DNA from: a virus
DNA: 64,000 bases
Direction: 5' to 3' (one strand)
IMG/VR virus record: IMGVR_UViG_3300024988_000067
Positions 4,860 through 40,156 of the stretch are shown here, piece after piece. Numbering within the stretch: the stretch's first letter is position 1; each line of letters begins with the position of its first letter. Both the position numbers and the translations under genes were made by a program. The notes beneath the pieces were generated by a model, which saw only the letters and a program-made list of their open reading frames with translations, had not been told where the DNA came from and made no database searches.

Positions 4860-4880
4860 TGGATTCGATGATGCTATTTA

Positions 4881-25672: not shown

Positions 25673-28600
25673 CGTAGGGCAGGGCGTCGGCGGCCTCGTT
25701 GGGGGTGTAATCGGGTTCTTCATCGGCGGGCCAACCGGCGCCTATTACGGCGCACAGGCAGGCATGATGATCGGCGGCGCGATCGATCCGCCCAAGGGGC
25801 CGACGATCAATGGCCCTCGGCTCAACGATCTCAGTGTCCAGACCAGCACCTACGGCGCGCCCATCCCGCGCAACTACGGCACCATCGCGCAGACCGGCAA
25901 CGTCTTCTGGCTGCAGGGCGACAAGCTGACCGAAGTCCAGACCGTCACCGAAAGCGGCGGCAAGGGCGGCCCGGTCACCACGACCAAGACCTGGAGCTAC
26001 TACGCCACCTTTGCGGTCGGCCTGTGCCAGGGTCCGATCGATGGCGTGCGGCGCATCTGGATCGGCGGGCAGTTGTGGTACGACGCCGGCAGCGACGACA
26101 TCGCCACCATCATCGCCAGCAACCAGAAATCCGACCTGTTCACGCTCTACCTTGGCACCGACACCCAGACCGCCGATCCCCTGATCCAGGCCGACAAGGG
26201 CGTGGCCAATGTACCAGCCTATCGCGGGCTCGCCTACATTGTGTTCGACGCGCTGCCGCTGGAAAAATACAGCAACAGCCTGATGGGAGCGCAGGTCAAG
26301 GCGGAAATCATCAAGATTGGATCCCGTTCCTATGTGTCGACATCCAAGATAATCAATAATGCGGCATGGCCGCTCAATCAATGGGCCGCAGCGGCAACGC
26401 TCGACACTACCGTGGTGGCCGTTTCCCTGTCATCGAATCTGTGCGCCTATTCGCTGGACGGAAACAACTGGACAACGACATATCTTCCCAGTACGGGAGA
26501 CTGGGCATGTGTCGCATCCAAGCCCGGGCTTTTTGTCGCCGTCCAGCGAAACACAAACCAGACGGCAACCTCGCCCGATGGTATCAGATGGACGGCGGGT
26601 ACTACGCTTCCTGGATTGCCGCTTGATGCGCGCAAACTGATCTGGACCGGATCGTTTTTTTGTTTGATTTCGTTTTCAACGACACGCGTATTTATCTCTG
26701 CCGATGGCTTTAACTGGGTTGAGGGCGCGCTTCCGACGACGACATATTCATATTGGATCGATGTTGCCTGGAATGGCAGTACGCTCTGCGCGATCCAGAA
26801 AAATTCCGACGTTGCGGCCGTCAGTACGAATGGATTGACCTGGACCCAGACAACGCTGCCTGTTTCTGATTACTGGACCGCCATTGCAAGCGATGGGGAA
26901 ACCTTTGTCGCGGTCACGGGAACCAAGCTGGATGCAAAGTCCGTGGATGGCGTTACATGGACAGGCGGTTCAACCATGGTGATCACCAATGGAACGGTGT
27001 CTGGCGTTGGAACGGAGTGGAAACTGGCCTTCAATGGAAGCGCTTTTATTGTAGCGACAGGATCAAGCACAAAATATCTTATTTCCGAAGACGCCGGTGC
27101 AACGTGGACGATATTCACGGCGCAGCATACCATGTCGAGTTTCCCGGCGATCACCTCGTACAACGGAATATTCTTGTCCGTCATCGTCAACGGCGACGCA
27201 GAATTTATCTACAAGGACATGACATCGCAATCTGCGGTCCTTGGGGATATTGTCCAGACGGAATGCCTGACCAGCAATATTCTTACCGCCGGCGACCTCG
27301 ACGTCACCGAACTCACGGACACCGTACGCGGTTATCGCATCAGCCAGCTTGGCGCGATCCGCGGGGCGCTCGACCCGCTACGTGCTGCGTTCCCGTTCGA
27401 TGTGGTGCAGCATGGCTACCAGATAAAGTTTGTGCGCCGTGGCGGTGCCAGCGTGGCAAGCATTCCAACATCGTCTCTCGATGCCCGCGCGGCTGGCGCG
27501 GAGCCTGGCGTTCAGGTCACCGATGCGCGCGAAATGGATTTGATGCTGCCGCGCAAGGTGTCGGTGAACTATGTCGACGTCACGCGCGAATACGAAACCA
27601 ACCAGCAGTCCTATGAGCGCATCAACACCGATGCCATAGGCGAGCGCGCAGTCGAGATGCCCATCGTGTTCAGCGCCGCAGAGGCCGCGCAGATAGCCGA
27701 GATGCTCACCTATCTCTACTGGATGGAACGCCACGACGTCGCCTTCGTGCTGCCGCCGGAATATGACAACCTTGAGCCGGCTGACGTGATCACCCTCACC
27801 GGTACCGATGCCACCTGGGAACTGCGCCTGCTCTCCACCAACACGCTGCCAGACGGCCGCATCGAGTCTCGGGCCAAATACAACAAGGCCGCAATCTACA
27901 CCCCAGTCGCGCGAGGCGAGGAAGGCCAGTCCACGGGTGGACTTTTAACGCTGGCCGGACCGTGCGTCTATAGTCTGCTCGACATTCCGCTGATGCGCGA
28001 CGACGACGACACCGCCGGCTTTCCGGTCGCCATGGCCGGCTACCTCAGCGGCTGGCCAGGCGGCATCCTCTATCGCAGCGACGACAGCGGTCAGACCTGG
28101 ACCGACCTGCGCGCATTCGCGCCCGGCGCGGTGATCGGCTACGCCACCACCAGCCTCGCGGCTCACGGCGGAACCGTCTATGACTTCGCGTCCACGCTCG
28201 CGGTAATACTGCATTCCGGAACGCTGTCGAGCGTGACCGAAGCGCAGCTGTTCGCCGGGCAGAACTGGTTCGCCTACGGCGCCGACGGGCGCTGGGAGAT
28301 CATCGCCGCGCGCACTGCCACGCTGCAGGGAGACGGCAGCTACGTACTGCAGGATTTTCTTCGCGGCCAGCACGGAACCGAGTGGGCTACCGGCCTGCAT
28401 GCAGTCAATGACACGCTGGTCCTGCTGTCCGCCACCGCGCTGTCGTTAATCAGTGTCAACGCCAGCAGCATTGGCAGCGCCAGGACCTACCGCGCCATCA
28501 CCACCGGCAAGTCGCTCGACAGCGACACCGACCTGTCGTTCACCTATACCGGCGTCAACCTCGAATGCCTGAGCCCAGTGGCGCTCACCGGAAACCGCCA

Positions 28601-28901
28601 TCCGAGCACCAATGATTGGACGCTGACCTGGACCCGCCGCAGCCGCTATGCCGATTGGCGCGACTATATCGACGCGCCGCTGGGCGAGACCAGCGAATCC
28701 TACGAAATCGACATTTTCAGCAGCGGTACCTACACCACGCTCAAGCGCACGCTCACTGCCAGCAGCCCCACCGCGGCTTACACCAGCGCGCAGCAGGTCA
28801 CCGATTTCGGCAGCAACCAGGCCACGCTCTACGTCAAGGTCTACCAGCTTTCCGCCACCGTCGGCCGCGGCTACGCGCTGACCCAATCGATCACGAGGTA
28901 A
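25665..28901 (+). CDS. Tail tip/host-specificity protein (central fibre) with inserted propeller-like domain
   Basis: YGAPIPRNYGT, PAYRGLAYIVF, LPRKVSVNYVD..REY, LRGQHGTE; GTG start. Confidence 0.85.
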   Translation: MSSVGQGVGGLVGGVIGFFIGGPTGAYYGAQAGMMIGGAIDPPKGPTINGPRLNDLSVQTSTYGAPIPRNYGTIAQTGNVFWLQGDKLTEVQTVTESGGKGGPVTTTKTWSYYATFAVGLCQGPIDGVRRIWIGGQLWYDAGSDDIATIIASNQKSDLFTLYLGTDTQTADPLIQADKGVANVPAYRGLAYIVFDALPLEKYSNSLMGAQVKAEIIKIGSRSYVSTSKIINNAAWPLNQWAAAATLDTTVVAVSLSSNLCAYSLDGNNWTTTYLPSTGDWACVASKPGLFVAVQRNTNQTATSPDGIRWTAGTTLPGLPLDARKLIWTGSFFCLISFSTTRVFISADGFNWVEGALPTTTYSYWIDVAWNGSTLCAIQKNSDVAAVSTNGLTWTQTTLPVSDYWTAIASDGETFVAVTGTKLDAKSVDGVTWTGGSTMVITNGTVSGVGTEWKLAFNGSAFIVATGSSTKYLISEDAGATWTIFTAQHTMSSFPAITSYNGIFLSVIVNGDAEFIYKDMTSQSAVLGDIVQTECLTSNILTAGDLDVTELTDTVRGYRISQLGAIRGALDPLRAAFPFDVVQHGYQIKFVRRGGASVASIPTSSLDARAAGAEPGVQVTDAREMDLMLPRKVSVNYVDVTREYETNQQSYERINTDAIGERAVEMPIVFSAAEAAQIAEMLTYLYWMERHDVAFVLPPEYDNLEPADVITLTGTDATWELRLLSTNTLPDGRIESRAKYNKAAIYTPVARGEEGQSTGGLLTLAGPCVYSLLDIPLMRDDDDTAGFPVAMAGYLSGWPGGILYRSDDSGQTWTDLRAFAPGAVIGYATTSLAAHGGTVYDFASTLAVILHSGTLSSVTEAQLFAGQNWFAYGADGRWEIIAARTATLQGDGSYVLQDFLRGQHGTEWATGLHAVNDTLVLLSATALSLISVNASSIGSARTYRAITTGKSLDSDTDLSFTYTGVNLECLSPVALTGNRHPSTNDWTLTWTRRSRYADWRDYIDAPLGETSESYEIDIFSSGTYTTLKRTLTASSPTAAYTSAQQVTDFGSNQATLYVKVYQLSATVGRGYALTQSITR

Positions 28902-28904: not shown

Positions 28905-29561
28905 ATGGCCGACTCCACCGCCAAACTCACCCAGCTCACCACCGCCCAGGCCGGTAAGGAAACCACCGTCAACGAACTCATGGCCGCGCTGTCGATCGGC
29001 AGCCCGCTCGCGCGCCGGCAGTCGTCATCCGGATTGAGCTGGGATTACTACGGCGTCGACCGCTGGTATATCAACGCCACCGCCACCACCAAGGCCAACA
29101 CCACGCTCACGCTCACCGCCAGCAGCACGCGCTATGTCGCCGCCGACCGCGCGCTCGCCGTCACCGACAACGCCACTGCGTTCCCGGCCAACAAGCTCGC
29201 GCTGTACAAGGTTGTCACCGGCACCGCTACCGTCACCAGCTACGAAGACCACCGCGACCTCCACCACATCAACCGCTTTCTCTACGGCCGCTTCACCCTG
29301 GCCATGGCCGACGCCAACAAGACGCTGACCTACGAGCAGGCCATGGCCGAATCGATGGAACTCACCGGCGCACTCACCGCACTGCGCGACGTCGTCGTCC
29401 CGCTTGTCCCACGCGCCTGGACTATCTACGCCAACACCAGCGGCGGATTCGGCGTCCGCGTCATTGGCGCCAGCGGCACCGGCATTACCATAGCCGACGG
29501 CAAGCGCGCCATCGTCGAGAGCGACGGCGCCAACGTTGTGCGCGTGACGGCGGACATCTAA
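28905..29561 (+). CDS. Tail fibre/baseplate accessory protein (DUF2793-like N-terminus)
   Basis: QLTTAQAGKETTVNELMAAL; last tail gene. Confidence 0.65.
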   Translation: MADSTAKLTQLTTAQAGKETTVNELMAALSIGSPLARRQSSSGLSWDYYGVDRWYINATATTKANTTLTLTASSTRYVAADRALAVTDNATAFPANKLALYKVVTGTATVTSYEDHRDLHHINRFLYGRFTLAMADANKTLTYEQAMAESMELTGALTALRDVVVPLVPRAWTIYANTSGGFGVRVIGASGTGITIADGKRAIVESDGANVVRVTADI

Positions 29562-29589
29562 TAAGGAGACCCCCGAGAGCGAGGCTGCA

Positions 29590-29790
29590 CCAAAATCACT
29601 TGCAAAACGATTGCGTAAGTATTTGATTTTATTAAGTCGCAAATAGCTGTTTTTGGCTGTAAAATTGATCCTTAAAAATAGCGTAAGGCATTGAATTAAA
29701 TGGATAAAATAAGAGTTCTAATGATCTGCATGGGCAATATCTGAAGCCAGCGTGGTTATTGGCCTTGCAAATCCATTGCAAAGAATTCTC
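29590..29790. other. attP-like site (AT-rich, IHF consensus, core probably within 29727-29743)
   Basis: Downstream of int; rc(29616-29628) = AATCAAatacTTA matches WATCAANNNNTTR; repeated TTGCAAA; contains a host-gene fragment. Confidence 0.7.
29700..29744 (+). pseudogene. 5' fragment of a low-molecular-weight protein tyrosine phosphatase gene (MDKIRVLMICMGNI*)
   Basis: Matches the LMW-PTP/ArsC N-terminus ..VLF(V/I)CMGNICRS; TGA where TGC is expected. Confidence 0.75.
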
Positions 29791-29801
29791 AAAACGAACC
29801 G

Positions 29802-30272
29802 CTATTTCTTAAGCGGAATGCCCGGCTTCGGCGGGGCGAAAATCTCCTTGCCTCTGACCCCTTTGTGGTACCTGTAGTAGAGTGTCCGGTATGGGATGCC
29901 GGTGGCATCGGCCCAGCCTTTTATCGTTCTGCGCACGCCGTCGATCTCGAGGAAGCAGTTGTTCCGCTTGTTTTCGCACTGGGTTTGCATGGACACCCAG
30001 CGGCAGTTGTCCGGTCCATAGCCCGCATTGTTGTTGGCCCGGTCCAGGGTGAGGCCGGGCCTGTATCCGTTCTCCAGCGCCCATATCTCGAAGGACAGGA
30101 AGGAGCTTTGCCATTCCTGGCAAACGCTTATCCCGCGCTCGCCGTAGTTGTGGAAGACCTCGGCCGTCTCGTTCATGCACCGGTACATCATCGAGCGCCA
30201 AACCCTGTAGAGGCTGCTCTCGGCGAGGTCTTGCCCGGTTGCACCGTGGCGCTCGTATCGGCGCTTCGTCAT
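29802..30272 (-). CDS. HNH homing-endonuclease-like protein
   Basis: LYRVWRSMMYRC...NYGERGISVCQEW...LTLDRANNNAGYGPDNCRW; ATGA-coupled to the int stop. Confidence 0.85.
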   Translation of the reverse strand: MTKRRYERHGATGQDLAESSLYRVWRSMMYRCMNETAEVFHNYGERGISVCQEWQSSFLSFEIWALENGYRPGLTLDRANNNAGYGPDNCRWVSMQTQCENKRNNCFLEIDGVRRTIKGWADATGIPYRTLYYRYHKGVRGKEIFAPPKPGIPLKK

Positions 30273-31447
30273 CCCACCTGCACCCTGACCCACTCCGCCC
30301 CGCGGGCGTCCTTGTAGATTGCGGTTGAACGGGGGTCTTTGTGGCCCAGCAGCAGCTGGGTATTGACGTTCCCTTGGTCGTTGTAGAGCCGTTCCGCCAG
30401 GGAGCGCAGTTCGTGGAAGCTGGGCGGGGTTTTGCCGGTTTCCCATAGGGGCGATTCGCTGCGGCTGGCGGCGAGGTCGCGGGCGTCGGCGAAGCGGCGG
30501 GTGATGGTATCTATCCACACCTGGTCGCCTGGATTGCAATTGCCGTAGGGACGTGTGTGGTGGACAGCGTAGCGGCTGACGACGGTGTCACGGCAGCGAG
30601 CGATGACTTCGCCGAGTTCAAGGCCGACGACGTCTAGACGCAGACTTAATGGGATGGCGACGCGGTTTCCGGTTTTTTGCTGGATGACGTAGATGGCGCC
30701 GGACTCGACCCAGGCCGAGGCGCCGGCGCGGGGACGGAATTCGATGCAGGCGATGTCTTCGCGGCGCTGGCCGGTGACGATAGCGAGCTCGATGCTGCGG
30801 GCGATCCACGGCGAGTCGAGTTCGAGGCTGGCAGCGTGGATCTGGCGGAAGCTGTCGAGCACCAGGCGGGCGCGCTGCACTTCGACTGACGGCGCGCGAG
30901 TCTTGGCGAATGGGTTGTCGGTGGCGAGGCCTTCGGCGATGGCGGTCTTGAAGATCTCGATTCCTTCGCTGCGCACGGCCAGCGCCATACGTTCGCGCGG
31001 TGGATCTGATTCGAGGTAGGCGGCGAGGATCTCTACGGCGTCGCGTACGCTGAAAGCGTCGATCGGCAGTTTGCCCTTGGCGCGGGTGATGGCGTTGCCG
31101 ATGCTGCGCTTGGTCTTGAGCGTGTTGGCGGCGAGCTTGCCCTTGGCCTGCAACTTCTCGCAGTGCTCGATGTGCTTGAGGATGACGGCGCCGAGGGTAG
31201 GACCGCTGGGCCTGGCTGTGGCGATGGCATCGACGCGCGCGCCGGCGAGCTGGGCGAGGATGGCGGCGTTGAGCGCTTTGGCGTCGGCGATGGCGGAGAC
31301 CTTGTCGCTGCCCATGCCGTGGAAGGTGCCGGTGCGGATGTCCTTGTAGCGGTAATAGGTGCGTCCGCTGGCGCGGTCTACAGTGGCATAGAGGTTGTCA
31401 GGCAGGTCGAGACTGCCCGGGCGGCGGCGGGGTGGCATGGCGGGCAT
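30269..31447 (-). CDS. int: Phage integrase, lambda-type tyrosine recombinase with arm-binding N-domain
   Basis: LPDNLY...YYRYKDIRTG N-domain; TGQRREDI, SFHELRSL, LLGHK, Y catalytic residues. Confidence 0.95.
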   Translation of the reverse strand: MPAMPPRRRPGSLDLPDNLYATVDRASGRTYYRYKDIRTGTFHGMGSDKVSAIADAKALNAAILAQLAGARVDAIATARPSGPTLGAVILKHIEHCEKLQAKGKLAANTLKTKRSIGNAITRAKGKLPIDAFSVRDAVEILAAYLESDPPRERMALAVRSEGIEIFKTAIAEGLATDNPFAKTRAPSVEVQRARLVLDSFRQIHAASLELDSPWIARSIELAIVTGQRREDIACIEFRPRAGASAWVESGAIYVIQQKTGNRVAIPLSLRLDVVGLELGEVIARCRDTVVSRYAVHHTRPYGNCNPGDQVWIDTITRRFADARDLAASRSESPLWETGKTPPSFHELRSLAERLYNDQGNVNTQLLLGHKDPRSTAIYKDARGAEWVRVQVG

Positions 31448-31455
31448 AGTAAACC

Positions 31456-32478
31456 TTATGCGGCGATCCGGTCGAGCGGGCTGATCGCACCGGCGGCGCC
31501 GCGTTTGACGACGTGGGTATAGATCATGGTGGTAGAAACGTCAGAGTGACCGAGCAGTTCCTGTACGGTGCGGATGTCGCTACCTGTTTCGAGCAGATGC
31601 GTGGCGAAGCTGTGGCGGAGGGTATGGCAGCTTGCAGGCTTATGGATGCCGGCCGCGATTACGGCGGCGCGCATGGCGCGCTGGATGCCTTTTTCATGGA
31701 TGTGGTGGCGGCGCACGACGCCGGTGCGTGGATCGGTGCTGTAGTCGGCCGCGGCGAATACGTATTGCCATGCCCATTCCTTCGGCGCGTTCGGATATTT
31801 CTTCCACAGCGCATGCGGTAGTTCGACGTCGACCATGCCGCGCGCGAGGTCGATGTCGTGCATCTTGCGGCGGACGGCGAGCTGATCGCGCAGCGGCTGC
31901 ACCAGGCTGGCAGGTAGCGGGACGACGCGGTCCTTGTCGCCCTTGCCGCCGCGCACCAGGATGATGTTCGAGTCGAAGTCGATGTCCTTGACGCGCAGCC
32001 GCATGGCTTCCATGAGGCGCATGCCGGTTCCGTAGAGCAGCCTGATGATCAGCCCGCTCGTGCCCTTGGTATGGGCAAGCACTGCAGCCACCTCGGACTG
32101 GCTCAATACGACAGGAAGCCGGGCCGGTTTCTTGGCGCGCGTGATGTTGTCGAGCCATGGCAGGTCGATTCCGAGCACATGCTTGTATAGGAAAAGCAGC
32201 GCTGCGAGCGCCTGATTTTGCGTGCTGGCAGAAACGTCACGCTCATTTGCGAGCATCGACAGGAAGGCTTCTATCTCGGGCGCTCCCATGTCGGCAGGGT
32301 GGCGAAGGCCGCTCCAGTGGATGAAGTGCTTGACCCAGCTGATATAGGTGCGCTCAGTGCGCAAGCTGTAGTGCTTGACACGGATCGCCGCGCGCATCTG
32401 GTCTAGCAGCTTGGGCTTGGCGGACACGGATGCCTTGTCCTGCTGCTGTGTCTCGATATGATCGATAGTTTCAGTCAT
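31456..32478 (-). CDS. intI: Integron integrase (not class 1)
   Basis: KHYSLRTERTY, STQNQALAALLFLY, LYGTGMRLME, GKGDKDR, integron-specific insertion LPHALWKKYPNAPKEWAWQYVF...DPRTGVVRRHH, HTLRHSFATHLL, IRTVQELLGHSDVSTTMIYTH all intact. Confidence 0.97.
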   Translation of the reverse strand: MTETIDHIETQQQDKASVSAKPKLLDQMRAAIRVKHYSLRTERTYISWVKHFIHWSGLRHPADMGAPEIEAFLSMLANERDVSASTQNQALAALLFLYKHVLGIDLPWLDNITRAKKPARLPVVLSQSEVAAVLAHTKGTSGLIIRLLYGTGMRLMEAMRLRVKDIDFDSNIILVRGGKGDKDRVVPLPASLVQPLRDQLAVRRKMHDIDLARGMVDVELPHALWKKYPNAPKEWAWQYVFAAADYSTDPRTGVVRRHHIHEKGIQRAMRAAVIAAGIHKPASCHTLRHSFATHLLETGSDIRTVQELLGHSDVSTTMIYTHVVKRGAAGAISPLDRIAA

Positions 32479-32520
32479 GGCGCTGGCTCCATGGTTGTCA
32501 TTATCAGGTTATAAGACAGG

Positions 32521-32569
32521 TTGATAGATTCGCGGACATCAGGGTGTCGTAGAATTTAAGTTAGCGGTC
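32521..32569 (+). other. attI site; crossover G/TT at 32560/32561
   Basis: gtcgtagaatttaaGTTAGCG just upstream of, and divergent from, intI; the core is mirrored by R'' of attC1. Confidence 0.8.
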
Positions 32570-33305
32570 ACAGGCTGCACGTCCTGCATTTGTTGGCTGA
32601 AAACCCAAACAGGTCGCCAGTCAACTCAGTGCCGCGTGGTATCTCGCCGCGCTCAAAAACATCCCGCAGTTCCGCCAGCGAGGCGGGCCAAGTGTCGCGG
32701 CTCGGGCTTCTGAATGTGTGCCCTATCGCCTGCTCCTGTTCCACCGCGTCCTGGTAAATCTCCGGGTGCTCTTTCCACAACATCCACCATTCCGGTAGCG
32801 TCTGGAAAAAACACCTAGCACAGTCCGTTCTTTCTGGTATCTGCACATCCCGATCCATCAAATACCCAAGCACATCACCCAAACCCCAACCCCAATCCCT
32901 GAAAGGGAAGCGAACTTCGCAGTTCTCATAAATCCCGCCCTCGCGGCCTTCCTCATCTGCCCGCAGCCCGATATACAAAACCACCTTGTTTCCCTGCTCG
33001 GCCTGGCGGTTTATCCACTCCTGGCAAGTTTCAATTTTCAAAACCCTAGTGCAAAACCGCTTCTGCCAATTCGGCAGGCATTTTTCCCGTTCGCACAAAC
33101 CCTTAAAATCTACCTCTGCGGTCAGCCGCGTCAGCCGCTTCCCGATCAGGCATTCCAGCCTATCCCAGTGCTCCAGCATCACCGGCAATTCATCGCCGGT
33201 GGGTGTGCACAAAAACACATAGTCCTGCGGCTCAATTTCGGCCAAGCGTAGCGCCAGCGCCGTGGAGTCTTTGCCGCCTGATAAACCAACTACGTGTAGT
33301 TCCAT
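32568..33305 (-). CDS. Cassette 1: PAPS-reductase-family (PP-loop) protein with Cys motifs
   Basis: VVGLSGGKDS, RFCTRVLKI, YIGLRADEEGR, RTDCARCFFQ; RBS GAGGA before MELHVV. Confidence 0.85.
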   Translation of the reverse strand: MELHVVGLSGGKDSTALALRLAEIEPQDYVFLCTPTGDELPVMLEHWDRLECLIGKRLTRLTAEVDFKGLCEREKCLPNWQKRFCTRVLKIETCQEWINRQAEQGNKVVLYIGLRADEEGREGGIYENCEVRFPFRDWGWGLGDVLGYLMDRDVQIPERTDCARCFFQTLPEWWMLWKEHPEIYQDAVEQEQAIGHTFRSPSRDTWPASLAELRDVFERGEIPRGTELTGDLFGFSANKCRTCSL

Positions 33306-33320
33306 GTCATCCTCAAAGAC

Positions 33321-33381
33321 CGCTAACACGGCGGTCAACAGCGACCGCGCGAAGCGCGGCGCGTTACCTTAGTCGTTGGCC
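33321..33381 (+). other. attC1 (61 bp)
   Basis: R'' (gac)CGCTAAC, L'' GGT(C)AAC pairs with L' GTTACC, R' GTTGGCC. Confidence 0.9.
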
Positions 33382-33412
33382 GCCACCTTTGCGCGGTGGC
33401 GGGTTCCTACTC

Positions 33413-33595
33413 TTATGCCGTTTCGAGTGCGCTCTCGTTCCACCAGCTTTCCACGGCGCGGCCGTCGGCGGCTTTGTAGCGCAGCAGGTAGCTGTTCCCA
33501 CCTACCGCGTATTCCGCTCTGGCGATAATGCTGCCCGTTTCACCGCTGGCCGAAATCTTCACGGTCTGGTTCATGCTGAAGGTAAATCCGTTCAT
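33413..33595 (-). CDS. Cassette 2: small phage-type protein (60 aa)
   Basis: ORF track; fills the cassette. Confidence 0.7.
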   Translation of the reverse strand: MNGFTFSMNQTVKISASGETGSIIARAEYAVGGNSYLLRYKAADGRAVESWWNESALETA

Positions 33596-33639
33596 TTGCT
33601 GCCCCTGTTCAAAATGCCGTGCCTTCGTTTGGGCGGCAC

Positions 33640-33703
33640 GGCCAACCCGTTAATCAAGCGGGACCGGCGCTAAAGCGCCGGCCCCTTATTGCTGTCGTTG
33701 GGC
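33640..33703 (+). other. attC2 (64 bp)
   Basis: GGCCAAC, AAT(C)AAG/CTTATT, loop gcgctaaagcgc, GTTGGGC. Confidence 0.9.
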
Positions 33704-33912
33704 ACCTCATCATTCAGCTTTGCCAGCAGCTCCGGGTGAACAAACAGCGTGTTGCCGCTTCGGTACATTGCTGGCCTGTCGATCCGGTGCTTAACCACCA
33801 GCCAGTTGCGGCGGCGCTTCTTTATCGGGTTCCGCTCGATGCGCCACACAGTCCGCACTTCGCGGGCCATCGGTGCGCTCACAACGGTCAATCCGTAAAT
33901 CGTTCGGTTCAT
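33670..33912 (-). CDS. Cassette 3: hypothetical protein (MNRTIYG...), stop lies in attC2
   Basis: RBS GGAGAGG; ends VPNDSNKGPAL*. Confidence 0.7.
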   Translation of the reverse strand: MNRTIYGLTVVSAPMAREVRTVWRIERNPIKKRRRNWLVVKHRIDRPAMYRSGNTLFVHPELLAKLNDEVPNDSNKGPAL

Positions 33913-33932
33913 GGTTTCCTCTCCGGGCCAGT

Positions 33933-34019
33933 GCCCAACAATCCGGTCGAGCCGAGGCCCGCCAGCGTCTTTAATCCTTGCCGTGTTCCGTAAGGCCCGG
34001 CTCACCGCAAGCGTTCGGC
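33933..34019 (+). other. attC3 (87 bp)
   Basis: GCCCAAC, GGT(C)GAGC/GCTCACC, GTTCGGC. Confidence 0.9.
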
Positions 34020-34273
34020 GTCAGCTTCACGAATCCTCGGGCGACCATGTACGGGTCGCGCTCTGGGTGATACCGCCGCGCTTCAATGTTCTTCGCCGGC
34101 TTCAGGCTCAACATCCGCCGCCAGTATTTTCCGCAGGCCAGCGCCCGCTCGTGGTTCGCGGCCGCCACGTAAACCGAGCTGCCGCACTGCTTGCCCTTGC
34201 GGTCTATCGGGTACACCTCCCACTGCAATCGTTCGGGGTTCGCGCCCCACTTTCTCGGGTCGTCGTAGCTCAC
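33971..34273 (-). CDS. Cassette 4, ORF b (GTG start, 100 aa), stop lies in attC3
   Basis: GTGA overlap with ORF a; ends TPNACGEPGLTEHGKD*. Confidence 0.65.
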   Translation of the reverse strand: MSYDDPRKWGANPERLQWEVYPIDRKGKQCGSSVYVAAANHERALACGKYWRRMLSLKPAKNIEARRYHPERDPYMVARGFVKLTPNACGEPGLTEHGKD

Positions 34274-34488
34274 AGGTCTTTCTCCATCACTCGGCACGGC
34301 CAGTGATGGCCGCAGTTTGCACAGGCGGCTGTGTCCAGCCGGGTTGTTTTCAGCGCGGCCGGCGATCCGTTGGCCATCAGCCAGTGGTAGGCGTGGCGTC
34401 CGCAGCGCGGGCACCGGCGCTCAATCTTGGCCGGCAGCCGCCGAACCCGTCGCTCCAGAGGGACGCCCTCCATGCCGCTTCGCGTCAT
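34270..34488 (-). CDS. Cassette 4, ORF a: CxxC...CxxC zinc-ribbon protein, start inside attC4
   Basis: CPRC...CANC; RBS GGGGAGA and ATG lie within attC4. Confidence 0.6.
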   Translation of the reverse strand: MTRSGMEGVPLERRVRRLPAKIERRCPRCGRHAYHWLMANGSPAALKTTRLDTAACANCGHHWPCRVMEKDL

Positions 34489-34518
34489 TCCGGTCTCCCC
34501 TGATCTAGTGCGTTAGGC
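34440..34518 (+). other. attC4 (79 bp)
   Basis: GCCGAAC ... GTTAGGC; L boxes imperfect. Confidence 0.75.
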
Positions 34519-34803
34519 ATCGTCATGCTCTTGTTCACGCATCGCCATATCAATCGCGTCCCGCAGGCTGTGCAGGTTCGCGGTCACGCAATGGGTCGGA
34601 AGTTGCACGTTGCCCACAGGGTTGTCCGGGTCGCTCAACCAGTCCAGCCGTGCCGCATCGGCACGCAGTCTTTTGTTCTCGCGCTCCAGTTCGCGCAGCT
34701 TGTTCGCCGCCTGCCTCATCGCCTCTGCCTTTACTGGCGTGGTCGCCCTATTGGCTTCGCGGTCCAGGTAGCCCGCATATCGTTGTGCCATGCTCATCTT
34801 CAT
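34513..34803 (-). CDS. Cassette 5: phage-type coiled-coil protein (DAARLDWL motif)
   Basis: Stop TAA is formed by the cassette core TTA. Confidence 0.75.
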   Translation of the reverse strand: MKMSMAQRYAGYLDREANRATTPVKAEAMRQAANKLRELERENKRLRADAARLDWLSDPDNPVGNVQLPTHCVTANLHSLRDAIDMAMREQEHDDA

Positions 34804-34810
34804 CCTCTGC

Positions 34811-34871
34811 GCCTAACCCGGCGCTCAAGCGGGACCGCGCTAAAGCGCGGCCCCTTAGCTATGCGTTGGGC
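34811..34871 (+). other. attC5 (61 bp)
   Basis: GCCTAAC, GCT(C)AAG/CTTAGC, loop gcgctaaagcgc, GTTGGGC. Confidence 0.92.
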
Positions 34872-35116
34872 CACTCTGCAACCGTGGTCACGTCTTTCGA
34901 TGCGCCGCACCTCTTGCAAAGGTAGCCGGTGGTTGTCCACTTCAGTCCGTCGCCGTCCGGGTCAAGGTCGAGCGATCCGCTTGTGATTGACCATCGGTGC
35001 AGCCCTAGCGCACAAAGCAGTGGTGTGTATCCAATTTTTGCGGCCAGCGTTTGCAGCCCAACCCGGCAGTCGAGCGGAGGCTCGGCAGCGGCTTTGTGGT
35101 CTTTGCTATCGTTCAT
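34859..35116 (-). CDS. Cassette 6: Cys/His small protein (85 aa), start in attC6 and stop in attC5
   Basis: MNDSKDHKAAAEPPLDCRVG...LCALGLHRW...CKRCG...WPNA*. Confidence 0.7.
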   Translation of the reverse strand: MNDSKDHKAAAEPPLDCRVGLQTLAAKIGYTPLLCALGLHRWSITSGSLDLDPDGDGLKWTTTGYLCKRCGASKDVTTVAEWPNA

Positions 35117-35145
35117 TCTCGCCCTCGCTAACTTTTGCGTTGGGC
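35056..35145 (+). other. attC6 (90 bp)
   Basis: GCCCAAC, AGT(C)GAGC/GCTAACT, GTTGGGC; near-identical to attC7. Confidence 0.88.
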
Positions 35146-35357
35146 ACCTTGCATTTAGGAATCTCGGTTGCCATTGCGCGGCCCTCGTATGTGTCGCGCC
35201 GCCACCACCAGTATTCCGCGCCATCAAATCCGCAATGCACGCAGCATCCGTCATCGTCCCATTCGTGGCCGTTGTTCAGGGATCGCTTAGTCCGTTGCCC
35301 AACCCGGCAGTCGAGCGGAGGCTCGGCAGCGGCTTTGTGGTCTTTGCTATTTTCCAT
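35106..35357 (-). CDS. Cassette 7: zinc-ribbon small protein, start in attC7 and stop in attC6
   Basis: GHEW....CCVHCG; ends VPNAKVSEGENER*. Confidence 0.7.
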   Translation of the reverse strand: MENSKDHKAAAEPPLDCRVGQRTKRSLNNGHEWDDDGCCVHCGFDGAEYWWWRRDTYEGRAMATEIPKCKVPNAKVSEGENER

Positions 35358-35386
35358 TCTCGCCCTCGCTCACTTTTGCGTTGGGC
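35297..35386 (+). other. attC7 (90 bp)
   Basis: GCCCAAC, AGT(C)GAGC/GCTCACT, GTTGGGC. Confidence 0.9.
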
Positions 35387-35580
35387 ACCGGGTCATATTG
35401 ATACTCAAACCCATCGCACTTGACCCCTTCGTCGCCTCGCATCATTTCCATAGTCAGGCCACACGCGCCCGTAATGATCTCGTGCGGGTAATCCGGTATG
35501 AAGTGCGTGCAGTTCTGGCATATGCGGTCGCAGTTACACAAACCGGGGAAACACTTTTCGCAAAACGCAAACGTAACCAT
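35347..35580 (-). CDS. Cassette 8: Cys-rich small protein, stop lies in attC7
   Basis: CEKC...CNC..ICQNCTH...GAC...KC; ends VPNAKVSEGENGK*; start uncertain. Confidence 0.65.
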   Translation of the reverse strand: MVTFAFCEKCFPGLCNCDRICQNCTHFIPDYPHEIITGACGLTMEMMRGDEGVKCDGFEYQYDPVPNAKVSEGENGK

Positions 35581-35586
35581 TTCAGT

Positions 35587-35648
35587 GCCCAACAAGTTAA
35601 TCGAGCGGGACCGTCGCAAGCGCCGGCCCCTCATTGCTGGCGTTCTGC
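35587..35648 (+). other. attC8 (62 bp)
   Basis: GCCCAAC, AAT(C)GAG/CTCATT, GTTCTGC. Confidence 0.9.
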
Positions 35649-35932
35649 GGAATTTCCGCGCTGTCATGCGGTAGCTTCCCAACTTGTCGCAAATAGCCGA
35701 TATAGTTTTCGTCCGCCACTAATGAGACGCACATCAGTTCATATGGTCCTTTGTACGCCGTGCGCGGCACCTCGCCGGGCGCGGACTCCGGTTTTTCAAG
35801 GCACTTGAATCCGATGCTGAAAACAAACCCTGGAATCATCGGCAGCGCGTCGGCGCGAATCTTCAGTTCGCCAATCACCTTGTCATTTAGGAAACTCTCC
35901 AGAACCGGCACCGTTATAAATTCATCTTTCAT
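35597..35932 (-). CDS. Cassette 9: hypothetical protein (111 aa), stop lies in attC8
   Basis: RBS AAGGA; ends PQNASNEGPALATVPLD*. Confidence 0.75.
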   Translation of the reverse strand: MKDEFITVPVLESFLNDKVIGELKIRADALPMIPGFVFSIGFKCLEKPESAPGEVPRTAYKGPYELMCVSLVADENYIGYLRQVGKLPHDSAEIPQNASNEGPALATVPLD

Positions 35933-35965
35933 TTTTTTGTCCTTTCTTCGTAGTTACCAAATTCC

Positions 35966-36028
35966 GCAGAACACAACGCTCGTGTGGGACCGCCGCTAAA
36001 GCGGCGTCCCCACAGCTAAGCGTTGGGC
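35966..36028 (+). other. attC9 (63 bp)
   Basis: GCAGAAC, GCT(C)GTG/CACAGC, loop gctaaagc, GTTGGGC. Confidence 0.9.
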
Positions 36029-36231
36029 ACCAGGCCATGCTGCGCAAACAGTGCAACGTCCTCGGCGTCCGCAAACTTTGTTCCGCCGCCTTGCGAGTAC
36101 AGGCTGCGGACGGCTGGTGTCGCATGCCCTTCCTCGCGCAGCAATACGGCCACGGCGCAGTAGTAGCCGCGCGACCACTCGCGGCTTGCGATGTCGTCGA
36201 TCACCTTGTTAATCCGGTCGGCAAATGCCAT
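36016..36231 (-). CDS. Cassette 10: hypothetical protein (MAFADR...), stop lies in attC9
   Basis: RBS AGGAG; ends VPNA*. Confidence 0.7.
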   Translation of the reverse strand: MAFADRINKVIDDIASREWSRGYYCAVAVLLREEGHATPAVRSLYSQGGGTKFADAEDVALFAQHGLVPNA

Positions 36232-36248
36232 GTTCTGCTCCTGTTCGT

Positions 36249-36308
36249 GCCCAACCATTTATTCAACTCGGACGCGCTAAAGCGCGCCGGTTATGTCAAG
36301 CGTTAGGC
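36249..36308 (+). other. attC10 (60 bp)
   Basis: GCCCAAC ... loop gcgctaaagcgc ... GTTAGGC; L boxes imperfect. Confidence 0.82.
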
Positions 36309-36596
36309 ACACAAACGCAGTGCATCAATGGCATTGATTGCGGCGGCCTTATCTGAGTCGGGTGCCGGTGTGGAGCGAATAGCGATCTCCATTGCGTCCA
36401 GCTCCTCTTTTGTGCTGGCTCCGATCAGTCCGGCCAGTGCATTACGCAGCCGCTCAATCTTTTGCTCTGCCTCGCGCATAGGATGTTTCTCGCAATTCTT
36501 TATGTGTTCAGTCAACAGTTCATGCTTTGCGGCTGGTGTTCCGTCTGGGTATTGGTGCCCGCAATAAACACAGGTTACAACATTGTTTTCACTCAT
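36303..36596 (-). CDS. Cassette 11: zinc-finger-like (CVYC...HIKNC..H) phage-type protein
   Basis: Stop TAA is formed by the core TTA. Confidence 0.75.
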   Translation of the reverse strand: MSENNVVTCVYCGHQYPDGTPAAKHELLTEHIKNCEKHPMREAEQKIERLRNALAGLIGASTKEELDAMEIAIRSTPAPDSDKAAAINAIDALRLCA

Positions 36597-36616
36597 AATT
36601 CAATTCTCCCAAAAGT

Positions 36617-36692
36617 GCCTAACAAGGCAAATTAACTGCGACCGTTCCGGTCGCTGCGCTCCCTACACGTCGCGTTATTTGCAACGTTAGCC
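36617..36692 (+). other. attC11 (76 bp)
   Basis: GCCTAAC, AAAT(T)AAC/GTTATTT, GTTAGCC. Confidence 0.88.
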
Positions 36693-36878
36693 GCCACGTG
36701 TGCCGCCCAATTCGCGCAGCTTGTCGCATACCCATTGTGGGTCTGTCACGCTACCGCCAGGCATCACTTCGATTGCCCGGTTTAGTGCGGCCTTCCACGC
36801 AGCGCGCGCAACCCATTCCTGTGCTTCTGGGTCGTATTTCATCCCTTCGCGTTCAAACCATTGTTCAAATTCGTCCAC
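36687..36878 (-). CDS. Cassette 12: small phage-type protein (GTG start)
   Basis: FEQWF...VARAAWKAA; RBS GGAGAG lies inside attC12. Confidence 0.7.
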   Translation of the reverse strand: MDEFEQWFEREGMKYDPEAQEWVARAAWKAALNRAIEVMPGGSVTDPQWVCDKLRELGGTRGG

Positions 36879-36965
36879 GTCTAACTCTCCATTCCAGGCG
36901 AGGCCGTGGAGCAGCCTTCACCCATAGTTGTGTTCTTTCGGCCCGCCTAAATTTCAGCGTTGGCC
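36879..36965 (+). other. attC12 (87 bp), last attC of the array
   Basis: GTCTAAC, ATT(C)CAGG/CCTAAAT, GTTGGCC. Confidence 0.78.
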
Positions 36966-36969
36966 GTCA

Positions 36970-37611
36970 CTACGCCGCCACCGGGAACGTGCGTTGCACT
37001 TGGATGTGCCGATCCTTCACGCGCTCATCCGTCATCACGGCTCGCGGGCCGCGCCGGTAGAACTGAAGCGCCAAGCTCAGCGCCGCGCCCCACTGCGCGC
37101 CCGAGAGACCGATGGCGCGGATGCGTGCGTTGGCAAAGCCCGCTGTCTCAATCTCTTCGCGGTCTCGCTCCCACGCTTCGCGGTCGTCCCACGTTTCCGG
37201 TTCGTACTTCCGCTCCAACAGGTGCCGCAGAATCTAGGCCGCCGTGATGTGAATGCACTGCTCGTAGCCGGGGCCAAAGCCTCCCATTTCAATGCTCCAG
37301 CAGGTTCCGCCGTCGTCCCACCGCTTCAGCCAGTCCGCAGCGTCAGCGCCGTAGGTGTCGATCTCGTGCTTTTCCTTGTCCTCGGCTTCGGTGCGATAGA
37401 ACACCTTCTGGCCGTCGAGAAACAGGCCGCGCACCGTGAAGCCGATTCCCTTGCCGTAGAAGCGCGCCGTCATGCCCTCTGTCGGTACCACGGGAGAGGG
37501 CGCAGGAACGTAAAAGCTCCAGCCGTCAGCCCGCTCGATGCTCCAGCCTTTGCCCTCGTCGCGCACTTTGGCGACTGTGGTTTCTTCAAACTGCTCGTCA
37601 TTCGGGTACAT
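36970..37611 (-). pseudogene. Hypothetical gene interrupted by one in-frame TAG (37234-37236)
   Basis: ...CIHITAA*ILRHLLERKYE... continues in the same frame to 36970. Confidence 0.7.
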
Positions 37612-37636
37612 GGTTTTCCTTTCGTTGTAAGTTGCC

Positions 37637-37852
37637 GTGCCGGCCAACCATCCAAACAGGGGGCCGAAATGCCCCTCTGCAAATCCAGCGCCAGCAGAAA
37701 TCCGGGAGGCCCGCGAAGCTGCTGGGATGTCGCAAACGGCGGCTGCATCCCTCATCCACTGCACCCTTCGCGGGTGGCAGGAGTGGGAGGCAGGCAACCG
37801 CAAAATGCACCCGGCGTTCTGGGAACTGTTCCGCATCAAATCAGCCCTCTAA
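37637..37852 (+). CDS. Small XRE-family HTH protein
   Basis: ANHPNR...EIREAREAAGMSQTAAASLI...WQEWEAGNRKMHPAFWELF. Confidence 0.75.
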   Translation: MPANHPNRGPKCPSANPAPAEIREAREAAGMSQTAAASLIHCTLRGWQEWEAGNRKMHPAFWELFRIKSAL

Positions 37853-37854
37853 CA

Positions 37855-38091
37855 TCACGCTGCCGCCCTGAATATCACGGCTGCCCGATCGGACAGATTC
37901 ACGATTGCCCTGTCCGCTGGTGCAGCCTGCGCATGGGTATAGATGGCGTCGCGCTCGACATACCAGGTGCGGCCGGCTTTGATTGGGGCGGGCTGGATGT
38001 GGCCTGAGCGGGCCCAGGCGCGCAGGGTTGGCAGGGTCGGCTGGGGGTCGAAATGCAGGGCTGCCCAGGCTTCTAGGGTGATGCGTTTCAT
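37855..38091 (-). CDS. xis: Excisionase (lambda-like Xis)
   Basis: MKRITLEAWAALHF..QPTLPTLRAWARSGHIQPAPIKAGRTWYVERDA. Confidence 0.85.
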   Translation of the reverse strand: MKRITLEAWAALHFDPQPTLPTLRAWARSGHIQPAPIKAGRTWYVERDAIYTHAQAAPADRAIVNLSDRAAVIFRAAA

Positions 38092-38549
38092 GTCGGCTTC
38101 CGGTTGAGGGCGTCGCCGCGGTCGACTCGGCGGCGCACTTCGAGCATGGCGGCGCGCGCGCCGTCGCGGGTGATGTTGGCCAGCTGCGCTTCGTGGATCT
38201 CGACTGCGTGCGCGAGGGCGGTGTAGCCGGGCCCGTGGAATGCCCATTTGCCGAGGCGGCGATGGCGTTCGAGGATTTCGATCAAAGCGTCCTGGGCGGT
38301 CTGGATGTCAGTAAGGTATTCGGCGCCGACACCGCGTTCGCACAGTACGAGGCTGACGTTGACCGCAGCAGCGAGGGCGTGCCAGTCAAGTTCGATGCCG
38401 TTGCCGGTGCGCATGCGCTCGATGCTGGTATGGATGGCCATGCCAAGATCGGTGAGCTGATCGTCTGTGAGCTGATGCTGCATGGCGATGGCATGCGACC
38501 AGGCGCTGCGGTCGGCGCGGTAGGGGCGGTATTTGGAGCGTTTTCTCAT
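38088..38549 (-). CDS. Conserved phage hypothetical protein (153 aa)
   Basis: ATGA-coupled to xis. Confidence 0.7.
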   Translation of the reverse strand: MRKRSKYRPYRADRSAWSHAIAMQHQLTDDQLTDLGMAIHTSIERMRTGNGIELDWHALAAAVNVSLVLCERGVGAEYLTDIQTAQDALIEILERHRRLGKWAFHGPGYTALAHAVEIHEAQLANITRDGARAAMLEVRRRVDRGDALNRKPT

Positions 38550-38561
38550 GCTTCGATCCTC

Positions 38562-39149
38562 CTAAATTCGACCACCCACAAGCTGCAATTCCAGCGCCAT
38601 ATCCGGAGCGCAATCAGGATTGCGCGGCCGGACAACGGCTGCCATCTTGTCGACGTTGAGGTCGCCCAAGAAACTCGCGATCTGTTCGGCGGTGACGCGC
38701 GGCCTTGCGATCATGTCCTCGAAGCGAAGGTCGAGGATGTGCTTGACGCCTGCCGTTCGCAGCGAGCGAACAGCTAATATCACATCTTCCTTGAAGGAAC
38801 GGGCGAGGGTCGCACGATATTCCCGATTGACTGGAAGCCCCATCATTTCACGAAGGAATTTCGCGTGTGACTTGGCCTGCTCCATTGGATCGCGCCTGCA
38901 CCATATCGCCTTCGTACTGATTCCATTGGGAAGTGTGTATGTCTGCGGATCAAGCAGTTTGAGTGCATGGCCGCTGATTCCGTGCAGACGTTCAGCATCA
39001 ATGAATTCTGGTTTCACGATATCGGATGCCTCGAATGCTGGATATTCGCCTGTTACGGGCATGCCGCCTGCTTCCAGCATTTGCATGACAAGCGATGATC
39101 CACAGCGCCCGAAACCACATACGAGGGTGATGGATTCGTGTGTGTTCAT
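38562..39149 (-). CDS. Sulfotransferase-family (P-loop) protein
   Basis: VCGFGRCGSSLVMQML (5'-PSB-like), WCRRDP (3'-PB-like), LRFEDM. Confidence 0.7.
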   Translation of the reverse strand: MNTHESITLVCGFGRCGSSLVMQMLEAGGMPVTGEYPAFEASDIVKPEFIDAERLHGISGHALKLLDPQTYTLPNGISTKAIWCRRDPMEQAKSHAKFLREMMGLPVNREYRATLARSFKEDVILAVRSLRTAGVKHILDLRFEDMIARPRVTAEQIASFLGDLNVDKMAAVVRPRNPDCAPDMALELQLVGGRI

Positions 39150-39201
39150 GCTGCCATTCCCCCAAGGTCAAGCTCTTCATTGAACAGGATCGGGCGCTCT
39201 T

Positions 39202-39459
39202 TCATCCCGCTCTCCGCTTGAGAATCACCGGATGCGCCCACATCGCCGAGACAATTCCCGCTGGGCCGCCGGCCAGGGTGGCGAGTATTTCGCTCCATCC
39301 CGCCCCTGGAAGGGTGCGCCATAGATAGATCTGGCACGCGCCGATGACAAGGCTGGTGAGCGCGGCTGCCTTGAAGTGGCGGTGAATCACGTTCTGCTGC
39401 TGGAATCCGAGCGCAAATACAGTGAGGTATGCGCTGGTGAACAGGGCAAGTTCGGTCAT
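39202..39459 (-). CDS. Small membrane protein (copy B)
   Basis: Repeat of 453-710. Confidence 0.7.
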   Translation of the reverse strand: MTELALFTSAYLTVFALGFQQQNVIHRHFKAAALTSLVIGACQIYLWRTLPGAGWSEILATLAGGPAGIVSAMWAHPVILKRRAG

Positions 39460-39501
39460 GACGCACCCCGCTTCATCAATTCTCGGTCGACGTGGTCGTG
39501 C

Positions 39502-39735
39502 TCAATCGCTGGCATTGCACACCTCTGCGAGTTTGCGGATACGGCCGTCGCGCAGCAGCGCCACGATCTCTTCGCGGTATTTGATGAGGTCGTCGAGCCA
39601 GTCCGGCAGTAGGGGAAGCGGCCACGAACGGCGATGCGTGGCGATGATGCTGTCAAGCCGCTCGATGGCGTCGCGCTGCTGGGCAAGCGAATAGCATCGG
39701 CGGTCTTCGTCCGGGGAATGCAGGCGGGCAGTCAT
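39502..39735 (-). CDS. Hypothetical protein (copy B)
   Basis: Repeat of 753-986. Confidence 0.55.
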   Translation of the reverse strand: MTARLHSPDEDRRCYSLAQQRDAIERLDSIIATHRRSWPLPLLPDWLDDLIKYREEIVALLRDGRIRKLAEVCNASD

Positions 39736-39893
39736 GCAACCACCTTTTCGGCGAGCTGCCACAGGACGATCAGCGCGAGGCCGATACAACAGGCCCAGCC
39801 GATGACGCTGTCGATGCGGCGATGGCAGGGGATGCCGCGCGAGGCGGCGCGGTTGGCGTCGCGGATCTGTTGGCGGGTGGAAAGTCCGTTCAT
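39732..39893 (-). CDS. Small membrane protein (copy B)
   Basis: Repeat of 983-1144. Confidence 0.55.
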   Translation of the reverse strand: MNGLSTRQQIRDANRAASRGIPCHRRIDSVIGWACCIGLALIVLWQLAEKVVA

Positions 39894-40123
39894 GCGGCCT
39901 CCAGATCAAGCGCGAGGTTGAATGCGACGGCCGGGTCGGCGTCGTTGGCGCGCTCGCAAGCCACCAGGGCGAGCAGCAGGATGTCGTCGCGGATGCGGTG
40001 GTCCGGCTCGTCCCGTGCGTCGCGCAGCAGGTCGCTGGCCAGTTCGTCCCAGATGGCTGGGTCGGCCTGGTCGATGGCGTCCTGCCAGCGGCAGGCGGTG
40101 CCGGTGGGGAGAATGATCGTCAT
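39890..40123 (-). CDS. Hypothetical protein (copy B)
   Basis: Repeat of 1141-1374. Confidence 0.6.
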   Translation of the reverse strand: MTIILPTGTACRWQDAIDQADPAIWDELASDLLRDARDEPDHRIRDDILLLALVACERANDADPAVAFNLALDLEAA

Positions 40124-40156
40124 GTCTCGCTCCTGATAGGTTGGCTTCTGCGTTCG

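Follow-up and report, generated by a model that had tools for sequence, protein, structure and literature searches.

Integrons are regarded as bacterial devices that reside on chromosomes, transposons and plasmids; in those of class 1 the promoter Pc lies inside the 5′ end of the integrase gene intI, and defence-gene cassettes have recently been described in bacterial integrons. Here we analyse an integron carried by a phage. It occupies positions 31456-36965 of a 64,000-nucleotide (nt) stretch of viral DNA, IMG/VR record IMGVR_UViG_3300024988_000067 (the window throughout this text), and consists of intI, the attachment site attI and 12 cassettes, each with its own recombination site attC. 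We consider it highly probable that this is a genuine integron platform seated in the leftward early/int operon of a temperate phage, with canonical sites and reverse-coded cassettes that would be expressed from an early phage promoter.

In the literature searched, only Qi et al. 2023 (PMC9892861) treats integrons in phages, reporting three complete integrons among 10,705 genomes, all of them single and apparently accidental; Shewanella prophage M16-3, prophages of Vibrio anguillarum and P1 with class 1 integrons are the cases described there. Neither reverse-coded cassettes nor an integron clade specific to phages came up in this search, which covered few subscription journals, so that absence is no proof. 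In inverted-integrase integrons (Treponema type, described in the IntegronFinder papers and cited in PMC13323075), intI and the attCs share a strand, the integrase gene having been flipped.

A complete integron with canonical sites

The left end of the element is formed by two adjoining features:
31456-32478, minus strand: intI, integron integrase of 340 amino acids (aa), TIGR02249 at 476 bits (cut-off 265)
32479-32566, plus strand: attI, adjoining the 5′ end of intI

IntI retains the catalytic residues R154, K179, H285, R288, H311 and Y320, and its integron-specific insertion aligns with IntI1; the profile score, the RKHRHY set and this alignment together bear out the intact, insertion-bearing integrase that the initial annotation, a reading of the sequence alone, had described. 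The protein is 59% identical to IntI1 and belongs to a separate clade, which places it outside the mobile integrons of classes 1, 2 and 3, recognised by near identity to IntI1, IntI2 or IntI3.

The attI contains two direct repeats of the form CAGRTTnGCGGACA (32505-32518 and 32525-32538) and ends in ATGTCGTAGAATTTAAG followed by TTAGCG, with a core G↓TTAGCG at 32560-32566 and the crossover between 32560 and 32561. When the window was aligned with six relatives whose IntIs are 83-88% identical (L001, L002, L014-L017), all seven elements had in common the start of intI, the two direct repeats and ATGTCGTCGAATTTAAGTT, and their identity ended directly after GTT (32560-32562), the next four bases and everything beyond being different (homology with L001 stops at 32565 and with L002 at 32563). 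This break is the mark of an insertion point that received seven different cassettes, and it agrees with the attI-type core that had been placed at 32560. The site is conserved, forms no hairpin, lies at the 5′ end of intI and has a G↓TT crossover, as expected of an attI. A search for related phages with the same int/xis and a different or absent array had been recommended in the initial annotation; the relatives in this alignment have attI in common with the window and begin with different first cassettes.

To the right of intI follow twelve imperfect palindromes, 60-90 nt long, with ends RYYYAAC...GTTRRRY. A covariance model built from eleven of them scored all twelve at 44-71 bits on the plus strand and at no more than 16 bits on the minus strand, and detected no further attC in 29500-40500 with filters off. 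The attC test is not circular, because the window-built model also finds independently known sites, namely the attCs of aadA5 (32.8 bits) and dfrA17 on a class 1 plasmid, both lying on the strand of their genes, with intI1 on the other. It further detected 128 attCs in 20 bacterial integron loci, all opposite to the intI strand; another 64 loci yielded 29 attCs, of which all except one were likewise opposite. The window has the polarity of these bacterial loci (intI minus, attCs plus), and its extrahelical (bulged) bases lie on the plus strand in the 5′ arm, as in the aadA5 attC from real sequence. The array runs from a simple site at the intI end to a complete attC (a12) at the distal end. 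Thus the earlier count of 12 attCs spaced 241-815 base pairs (bp) apart holds, with 12 co-oriented sites and cassettes of 241-815 bp, and so do the sites themselves under the kind of model proposed for checking them.

Compared with shuffled sequence, hairpin stability was modest (z from -0.3 to -4.6, mean -1.8, with a9 at z = -4.6); since free energy discriminates weakly, the attC argument rests on architecture and not on folding energy. Rfam at gathering thresholds gave no matches in the window, attC sites included, and is thus no test of attCs. The sites are heterogeneous in length and sequence (mean column identity 54%) and belong to a 38.7-kb phage, which differs from the chromosomal location and long arrays of near-identical attCs of sedentary chromosomal integrons; nor do intI (minus) and the attCs (plus) share a strand, as they do in the inverted-integrase type. 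One site, a3, is 94% identical to an attC of L002.

Cassette genes lie on the bottom strand of attC

The array is composed as follows; all attCs are on the plus strand and all open reading frames (ORFs) on the minus strand (RBS, ribosome-binding site):
Cassette 1, 32561-33375 (815 bp), attC a1 33321-33381: ORF 32568-33305, PAPS-reductase family (phrog_424, 3e-30)
Cassette 2, 33376-33697 (322 bp), attC a2 33640-33703 (67.6 bits): ORF 33413-33595, 60 aa (phrog_8618, 2.6e-28)
Cassette 3, 33698-34013 (316 bp), attC a3 33933-34019: ORF 33670-33912, 80 aa, RBS GGAGAGG
Cassette 4, 34014-34512 (499 bp), attC a4 34440-34518: overlapping ORFs 34270-34488 (72 aa, zinc-ribbon-like) and 33971-34273 (100 aa)
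Cassette 5, 34513-34865 (353 bp), attC a5 34811-34871 (71 bits): ORF 34513-34803, 96 aa (phrog_37882, 6e-6), its stop codon being TAA within the R′ complement
Cassette 6, 34866-35139 (274 bp), attC a6 35056-35145: ORF 34859-35116, start inside its own a6
Cassette 7, 35140-35380 (241 bp), attC a7 35297-35386: ORF 35106-35357, start inside a7
Cassette 8, 35381-35642 (262 bp), attC a8 35587-35648: ORF 35347-35580, 77 aa
Cassette 9, 35643-36022 (380 bp), attC a9 35966-36028: ORF 35597-35932, 111 aa
Cassette 10, 36023-36302 (280 bp), attC a10 36249-36308: ORF 36016-36231, 71 aa, RBS AGGAG
Cassette 11, 36303-36686 (384 bp), attC a11 36617-36692: ORF 36303-36596, 97 aa (phrog_38675, 2e-4)
Cassette 12, 36687-36959 (273 bp), attC a12 36879-36965: ORF 36687-36842/36878

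The cassette ORFs are on the attC bottom strand, and the attC belonging to each cassette lies 5′ of its ORF. They are co-directed with xis, intI, int and the early-left operon, and end at or just past the TTRRRY end of the cassette. This antisense coding was missing from the initial annotation's account of the integron and is added here as a correction. Good ribosome-binding sites and start codons are present on the minus strand in every cassette, and minus-strand ORFs match PHROG families in 4 cassettes (1, 2, 5 and 11). In cassette 4 the minus-strand frames share 90% and 76% identity with those of the homologue in L016, whereas the values for the frames on the opposite strand are 62% and 59%. 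In the relatives L002, L003 and L004, PHROGs were matched by 7/10 cassette ORFs on the intI strand versus 1/10 on the opposite strand, the cargo of the relatives including a DNA methyltransferase (1e-49), a PAPS reductase (1e-24), phrog_12600 (3e-68) and a DHH phosphoesterase (4e-107).

A longest-ORF test, crude and with cassettes within a locus not independent, assigned the coding strand to that of intI in 30/42 cassettes of the phage clade versus 13/103 in 14 bacterial integrons (Fisher p = 9e-12); by this test the bacterial controls are 87% top-strand. The coding polarity is opposite to that of every bacterial control examined, and promoterless top-strand ORFs read from Pc, as integrons normally carry, are not what is found in the window and the phage clade. 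Reverse coding decouples expression of the cargo from Pc, and would couple it to the lytic programme of the phage.

Besides the PAPS-reductase family gene, the cargo of the window consists of small PHROG families. No significant Pfam match was obtained for 10 small cassette ORFs, and Atlas look-ups of the cassette proteins gave only 'viral hypothetical protein' leads, among them the cluster nearest to the cassette 11 protein (score 0.94). The attCs of cassettes 6 and 7 are twins, 96% identical over 93 nt, and each holds the start and first ~20 codons of its cassette ORF.

The phage integrases form a lineage

In a maximum-likelihood tree of 86 IntIs, 13 phage and prophage proteins were monophyletic with a support of 98/92. 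The clade comprises the window, eight IMG/VR contigs and four contigs from metagenome-assembled genomes, binned as Thiobacillus, Sulfuricella, Nevskia and one Pseudomonadota, and is nested beside chromosomal integrons of Hydrogenophilales/Thiobacillus, whose cassette orientation is normal. The phylogenetic placement that had been called for thus leaves the window protein within IntI. Although they diverge by up to 35%, the IntIs of all 13 loci are intact and keep every catalytic residue.

In L014, L017, L003, L002 and L015 the module is found at the same place, with early genes on one side and an integrase on the other. L003 has tail genes in common with the window; in L014 and L017, whose arrays are shorter, counterparts of the early genes 38088-38549 and 39202-39459 lie immediately upstream of the array; and in L002 and L015 another tyrosine recombinase directly follows intI. 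By these comparisons the phage-borne integron is an established lineage and not a recent acquisition, and an origin of the clade from a chromosomal integron of the host group is most likely. The integron can thus be viewed as a conserved, evolving module of a phage lineage, in a field where earlier phage cases look accidental.

Two further arrangements were seen among other phages. In L004-L008 (~10972-11616) the gene directly after intI is a homologue of the window gene 39202-39459, which lies upstream of the array in the window; this gene order indicates that in that sub-lineage the module occupies another place in the early operon. Virus Rctr41k (L098, KX853513) encodes an IntI-like protein at 4680-5678, 48% identical, annotated as xerD and co-directed with all its neighbours; the window-built model gave only insignificant attC-like matches there, downstream of the gene and on the same strand. 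This could be an orphan intI, or a phage integron of another kind.

Cassettes bear the marks of movement

In 11/12 cassettes the R″ box of the attC and the preceding R′ box are exact reverse complements, with one mismatch in the twelfth; R″ matches its own adjacent R′ in only 2/12. Cassette 1 recurs in L094, a contig of an unrelated phage from a sediment metagenome (protein 96% identical): window positions 32560-33377 correspond to L094 943-124 with 95.4% identity over 820 nt. The homology runs from G↓TTAGCG to the GTT of the R′ box of a1, a1 included, and at the 3′ side of the ORF L094 has a different attC in place of attI. These exact bounds define the mobile unit as TTRRRY, body and attC, with canonical crossover points. 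Likewise, cassette 4 has a counterpart with 82% nucleotide identity in L016, a short related contig binned with Sulfuricella, where it stands second in the array; the homology there sets in at the R′ core of the adjacent attC and does not extend to the interior of that site. The cassettes are thus discrete mobile units bounded at G↓TTRRRY, and they recur in other metagenomic phage and prophage contigs (cassette 1 in L094, cassette 4 in L016).

The available part of L094 (1-1600, an ENA sediment contig) belongs to another phage type, with DUF1353, a Peptidase_M15_3 endolysin and a DUF4376 tail gene. Cassette 1 lies there between two a1-like attCs, no intI is found in this part, and the array, whose ORFs are also antisense, resembles a cluster of attC sites lacking integron integrases (CALIN). 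Homologues of cassette 1 in other phages (L095, L097) are ordinary genes without attC, which fits an origin of the cassettes from the phage gene pool.

From the comparative evidence we infer that the phage integron has been working. The initial annotation had proposed a functional gene-capture device acquired by the phage: the integron is complete, and the break at attI and the bounds of cassette 1 support past activity, but with a lineage of 13 IntIs the acquisition is not a recent one.

The segment also recurs in independent assemblies. Logan contigs of bioreactor and wastewater metagenomes contain 81-97% of it, and contigs of runs X1 and X3 together cover 29500-39500 with zero differences. 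Junctions covered include int, intI, attI and cassettes 1-3 on one side and cassettes 8-12, backbone and xis on the other. Since independent contigs span all junctions without differences, the chimeric join with host DNA that had been named as a possible undoing of the annotation is excluded. Runs X3 and X4 lack 35056-35296, the 241-bp block between the twin attCs a6 and a7.

In run X6 (an aquatic metagenome, 2025), backbone segments 36982-37317, 38047-38421 and 38687-38956 are present, identical or nearly so, at a depth of ~3, and cassette 1 at a depth of ~24 in an L094-like context. In X6, cassette 1 exceeds this phage in abundance, and the same backbone may occur elsewhere with a different array. 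A back-joint from 33371 to 32560 in X6, considered as a cassette circle, was rejected, as it reflects an L094-like array in which an a1-like attC precedes cassette 1; the remaining X6 joints consist of short stretches from unrelated attCs.

The phage genome and neighbouring genes

The window consists of a 38,749-bp sequence repeated 1.65 times (25,224 25-mers recur at exactly that offset), so the genome is circular or terminally redundant. It is that of a complete temperate siphophage with an HK97-fold head, as the period and the PHROG matches from TerS to the tail confirm for the complete 38.7-kb HK97-like genome reported before. A head-tail module, int/xis and immunity/replication genes, as in temperate siphophages of the lambdoid type, were identified (the first ten features by PHROG search):
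4569-4859: Cro-like regulator
5396-5779: CII-like regulator
5961-6935: replication initiator
8571-9086: small terminase (TerS)
8986-10785: large terminase (TerL)
10782-12032: portal
12001-12684: prohead protease
12790-13950: major head protein, HK97-type
21210-23312: tape measure
25638-28901: tail protein, 1087 aa
30269-31447, minus strand: int, lambda-type phage integrase (PF09003 Arm-DNA-bind_1, 1.7e-16, and PF00589)
36970-37218 and 37234-37611, minus strand: two backbone ORFs in the interval from array to xis
37637-37852, plus strand (opposite to the operon): small helix-turn-helix (HTH) gene between array and xis (phrog_2104, phrog_4836)
37855-38091, minus strand: xis, excisionase (PF07825, 1.2e-14)

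int begins 8 nt past the intI stop codon, and xis and int are 6.4 kb apart, in agreement with the gap of about this size noticed earlier, with intI, attI and the 12 cassettes in between. The backbone ORFs 36970-37218 and 37234-37611 had no family matches, and for ORF 29802-30539 (minus strand), downstream of int, no Pfam match was obtained and an HNH identity was not confirmed. A homologue of the HTH gene, 66% identical, lies between two attCs in L002 (6963-7400, minus strand) on the attC top strand; a backbone gene of one phage is thus a normally oriented cassette in another. The early operon also contains a sulfotransferase-family gene (PF13469, 1e-9) at 38562-39149 on the minus strand, the same operon as the PAPS-reductase-family gene of cassette 1, and the two may work as a pair on a cofactor or modification that contains sulfur.

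When 8.5 kb and 25 kb of the window were compared by Megablast with 50,697 deposited phage records, no close relatives were returned. The host is probably a Thiobacillus- or Sulfuricella-like betaproteobacterium of bioreactor or wastewater communities.

A proposed mechanism and its alternatives

On balance, we lean towards the view that a phage lineage has domesticated an integron and runs it backwards, with a phage-specific pool of bottom-strand cassettes, expression from an early promoter and a shuffling store of accessory genes, possibly for counter-defence. The site chemistry is canonical: intI diverges from attI, the top strands of all attCs face away from intI, and the cassettes are units exchanged at G↓TT. 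Transcription would start from the following site:
41506-41534, minus strand: candidate early-left promoter, TTGACA-17-AATAAT, matching 11/12 consensus positions, a pattern match only

From this promoter-like site at ~41.5 kb a minus-strand operon would extend through the early genes, xis, the array, intI and int, so that the cassettes would be transcribed from the phage early-left promoter and not from an integron Pc. In a lysogen neither cargo nor IntI would then be expressed, and induction or infection would switch on both at once. IntI could act on folded bottom strands exposed in replication, and may excise, reinsert and exchange cassettes among co-resident phages and arrays. New cassettes may arise through insertion of attCs at secondary sites among phage genes, and the array may be a store of genes for counter-defence or host takeover; methyltransferases, PAPS-reductase-like enzymes and phosphoesterases are possibly such cargo. 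A weak sigma-70-like match (9/12) is present at 32435-32462 on the plus strand, inside the 5′ end of intI and facing the array. If active, it would produce RNA antisense to the cassette genes.

Several observations weigh against this interpretation. The site that survives in X3 and X4 has the interior of a7, and so is not the product of a canonical crossover or excision at R′; homologous recombination within a 54-nt identical stretch of a6 and a7 explains the deletion. RNA runs containing this sequence were not found, and promoter-like matches are no commoner here than in shuffled sequence. Seven of 13 ORFs extend 2-15 codons beyond the cassette boundary into the attC of the neighbour, so a move would give them other C-termini. 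In GC-rich DNA the longest-ORF test is noisy, and a log-odds model of codon usage, trained on genes of the phage itself, separated the groups poorly; as such a model is unreliable on foreign cassettes, ORF length, ribosome-binding sites, PHROG matches and conservation were used instead.

Some of these observations would suit a fossil integron, captured once and now with inert sites, whose array is kept for its useful genes and whose relatives differ through homologous or illegitimate recombination: the sole variant in the reads fits recombination between twin attCs and not an IntI crossover at R′, and no circular cassette was found in the reads, the X6 back-joint being an L094-like tandem arrangement of attCs. 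We regard this as unlikely in view of an integrase kept intact with its catalytic residues in 13/13 divergent loci, an attI conserved to the base up to the break at GTT in seven elements, a cassette 1 that ends in L094 exactly at the crossover points, and the R-box footprint in 11/12 cassettes. The strand of the genes could also be read in another way, namely that the whole system has its polarity reversed, the mobile unit being an ORF with the attC downstream of it on the minus strand, the other strand being recombined and the integrase standing at the end of the array; the cassettes would then be of the normal kind. ORF ends often enter the attC that follows on the minus strand, a crossover on the R″ side of a6 and a7 would produce the deletion seen in X3 and X4, and the R″/R′ footprint is symmetric and fits both models. 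The unit that cassette 1 has in common with L094, however, includes the attC 5′ of the ORF and excludes the 3′ neighbour, which is attI in the window and another attC in L094. Moreover, a3 and the site following the cassette 4 homologue in L016 are unrelated, a conserved non-hairpin attI with direct repeats adjoins the 5′ end of intI, and the asymmetry of the attCs relative to intI is that of ~155 bacterial attCs. Together these points make a reversed polarity very improbable.

That published phage integrons are mostly accidental (PMC9892861) could suggest that the assembly is chimeric, or that a prophage excised imprecisely and took along part of its host's chromosomal integron, a route proposed for the prophages of Vibrio anguillarum. 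We find this hardly credible given that independent contigs of several runs cover both flanks without differences, that the same module stands in the same place in L014, L017, L003, L002 and L015, that the phage IntIs are a clade of their own, and that the cargo consists of phage-type genes on the strand of the phage operon.

The domesticated, reverse-coded integron favoured here would add a transduction-independent route by which cassettes could travel between integrons. It offers natural material for open questions such as the creation of cassettes, gene orientation as a free parameter and the stockpiling of counter-defence genes by phages; a counter-defence store, if true, would mirror the defence-gene cassettes of bacterial integrons.

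Comparison with known systems

The class 1 integron (IntI1/attI1, Tn402-type) has in common with the window the catalytic residues, the extra domain, the divergence of intI and attI, the G↓TTRRRY crossover and the attC architecture R″-L″-loop-L′-R′ with extrahelical bases, its sites being cross-detected by the phage-site model. It differs in its carrier (a transposon or plasmid versus a phage) and its cargo (resistance genes versus phage genes), and the attI of the window is shorter than attI1, with other direct repeats. As the ORFs of the window are on the attC bottom strand, a promoter of the Pc type would make antisense RNA here.

The chromosomal integrons of Hydrogenophilales/Thiobacillus (L021, L027, L037, L039, L023, L073) contain the nearest IntI relatives outside the phage clade; the window-built model detects similar attC types in them, oriented with respect to intI as in the window. 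In contrast to the window they are located on bacterial contigs, and their ORFs are on the attC top strand in 10/11, 7/7, 4/5 and 3/4 cassettes.

The cases of Qi et al. (PMC9892861) likewise hold an integron integrase and attC cassettes inside a temperate phage genome, but are a cryptic prophage, pieces of the host's own array and a transposon-borne class 1 integron, whereas in the window the integron defines a whole phage lineage, lies inside the int operon and has reverse-coded cassettes. Unlike those of the window, the cassette ORFs of Shewanella prophage M16-3 are on the attC strand, the canonical arrangement, and reverse coding is therefore no general property of integrons in phages.

In the inverted-integrase type intI and the cassette genes are co-directed, as they are in the window; in the window, however, intI and the attCs remain on opposite strands in the regular manner, and the flip concerns the genes within the cassettes instead. 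Finally, the accessory region of lambdoid early-left operons, from xis/int to the recombination genes, has the same position and direction and the same kind of small genes of mostly unknown function, but in the window each such gene is packaged as an attC cassette beside a dedicated recombinase.

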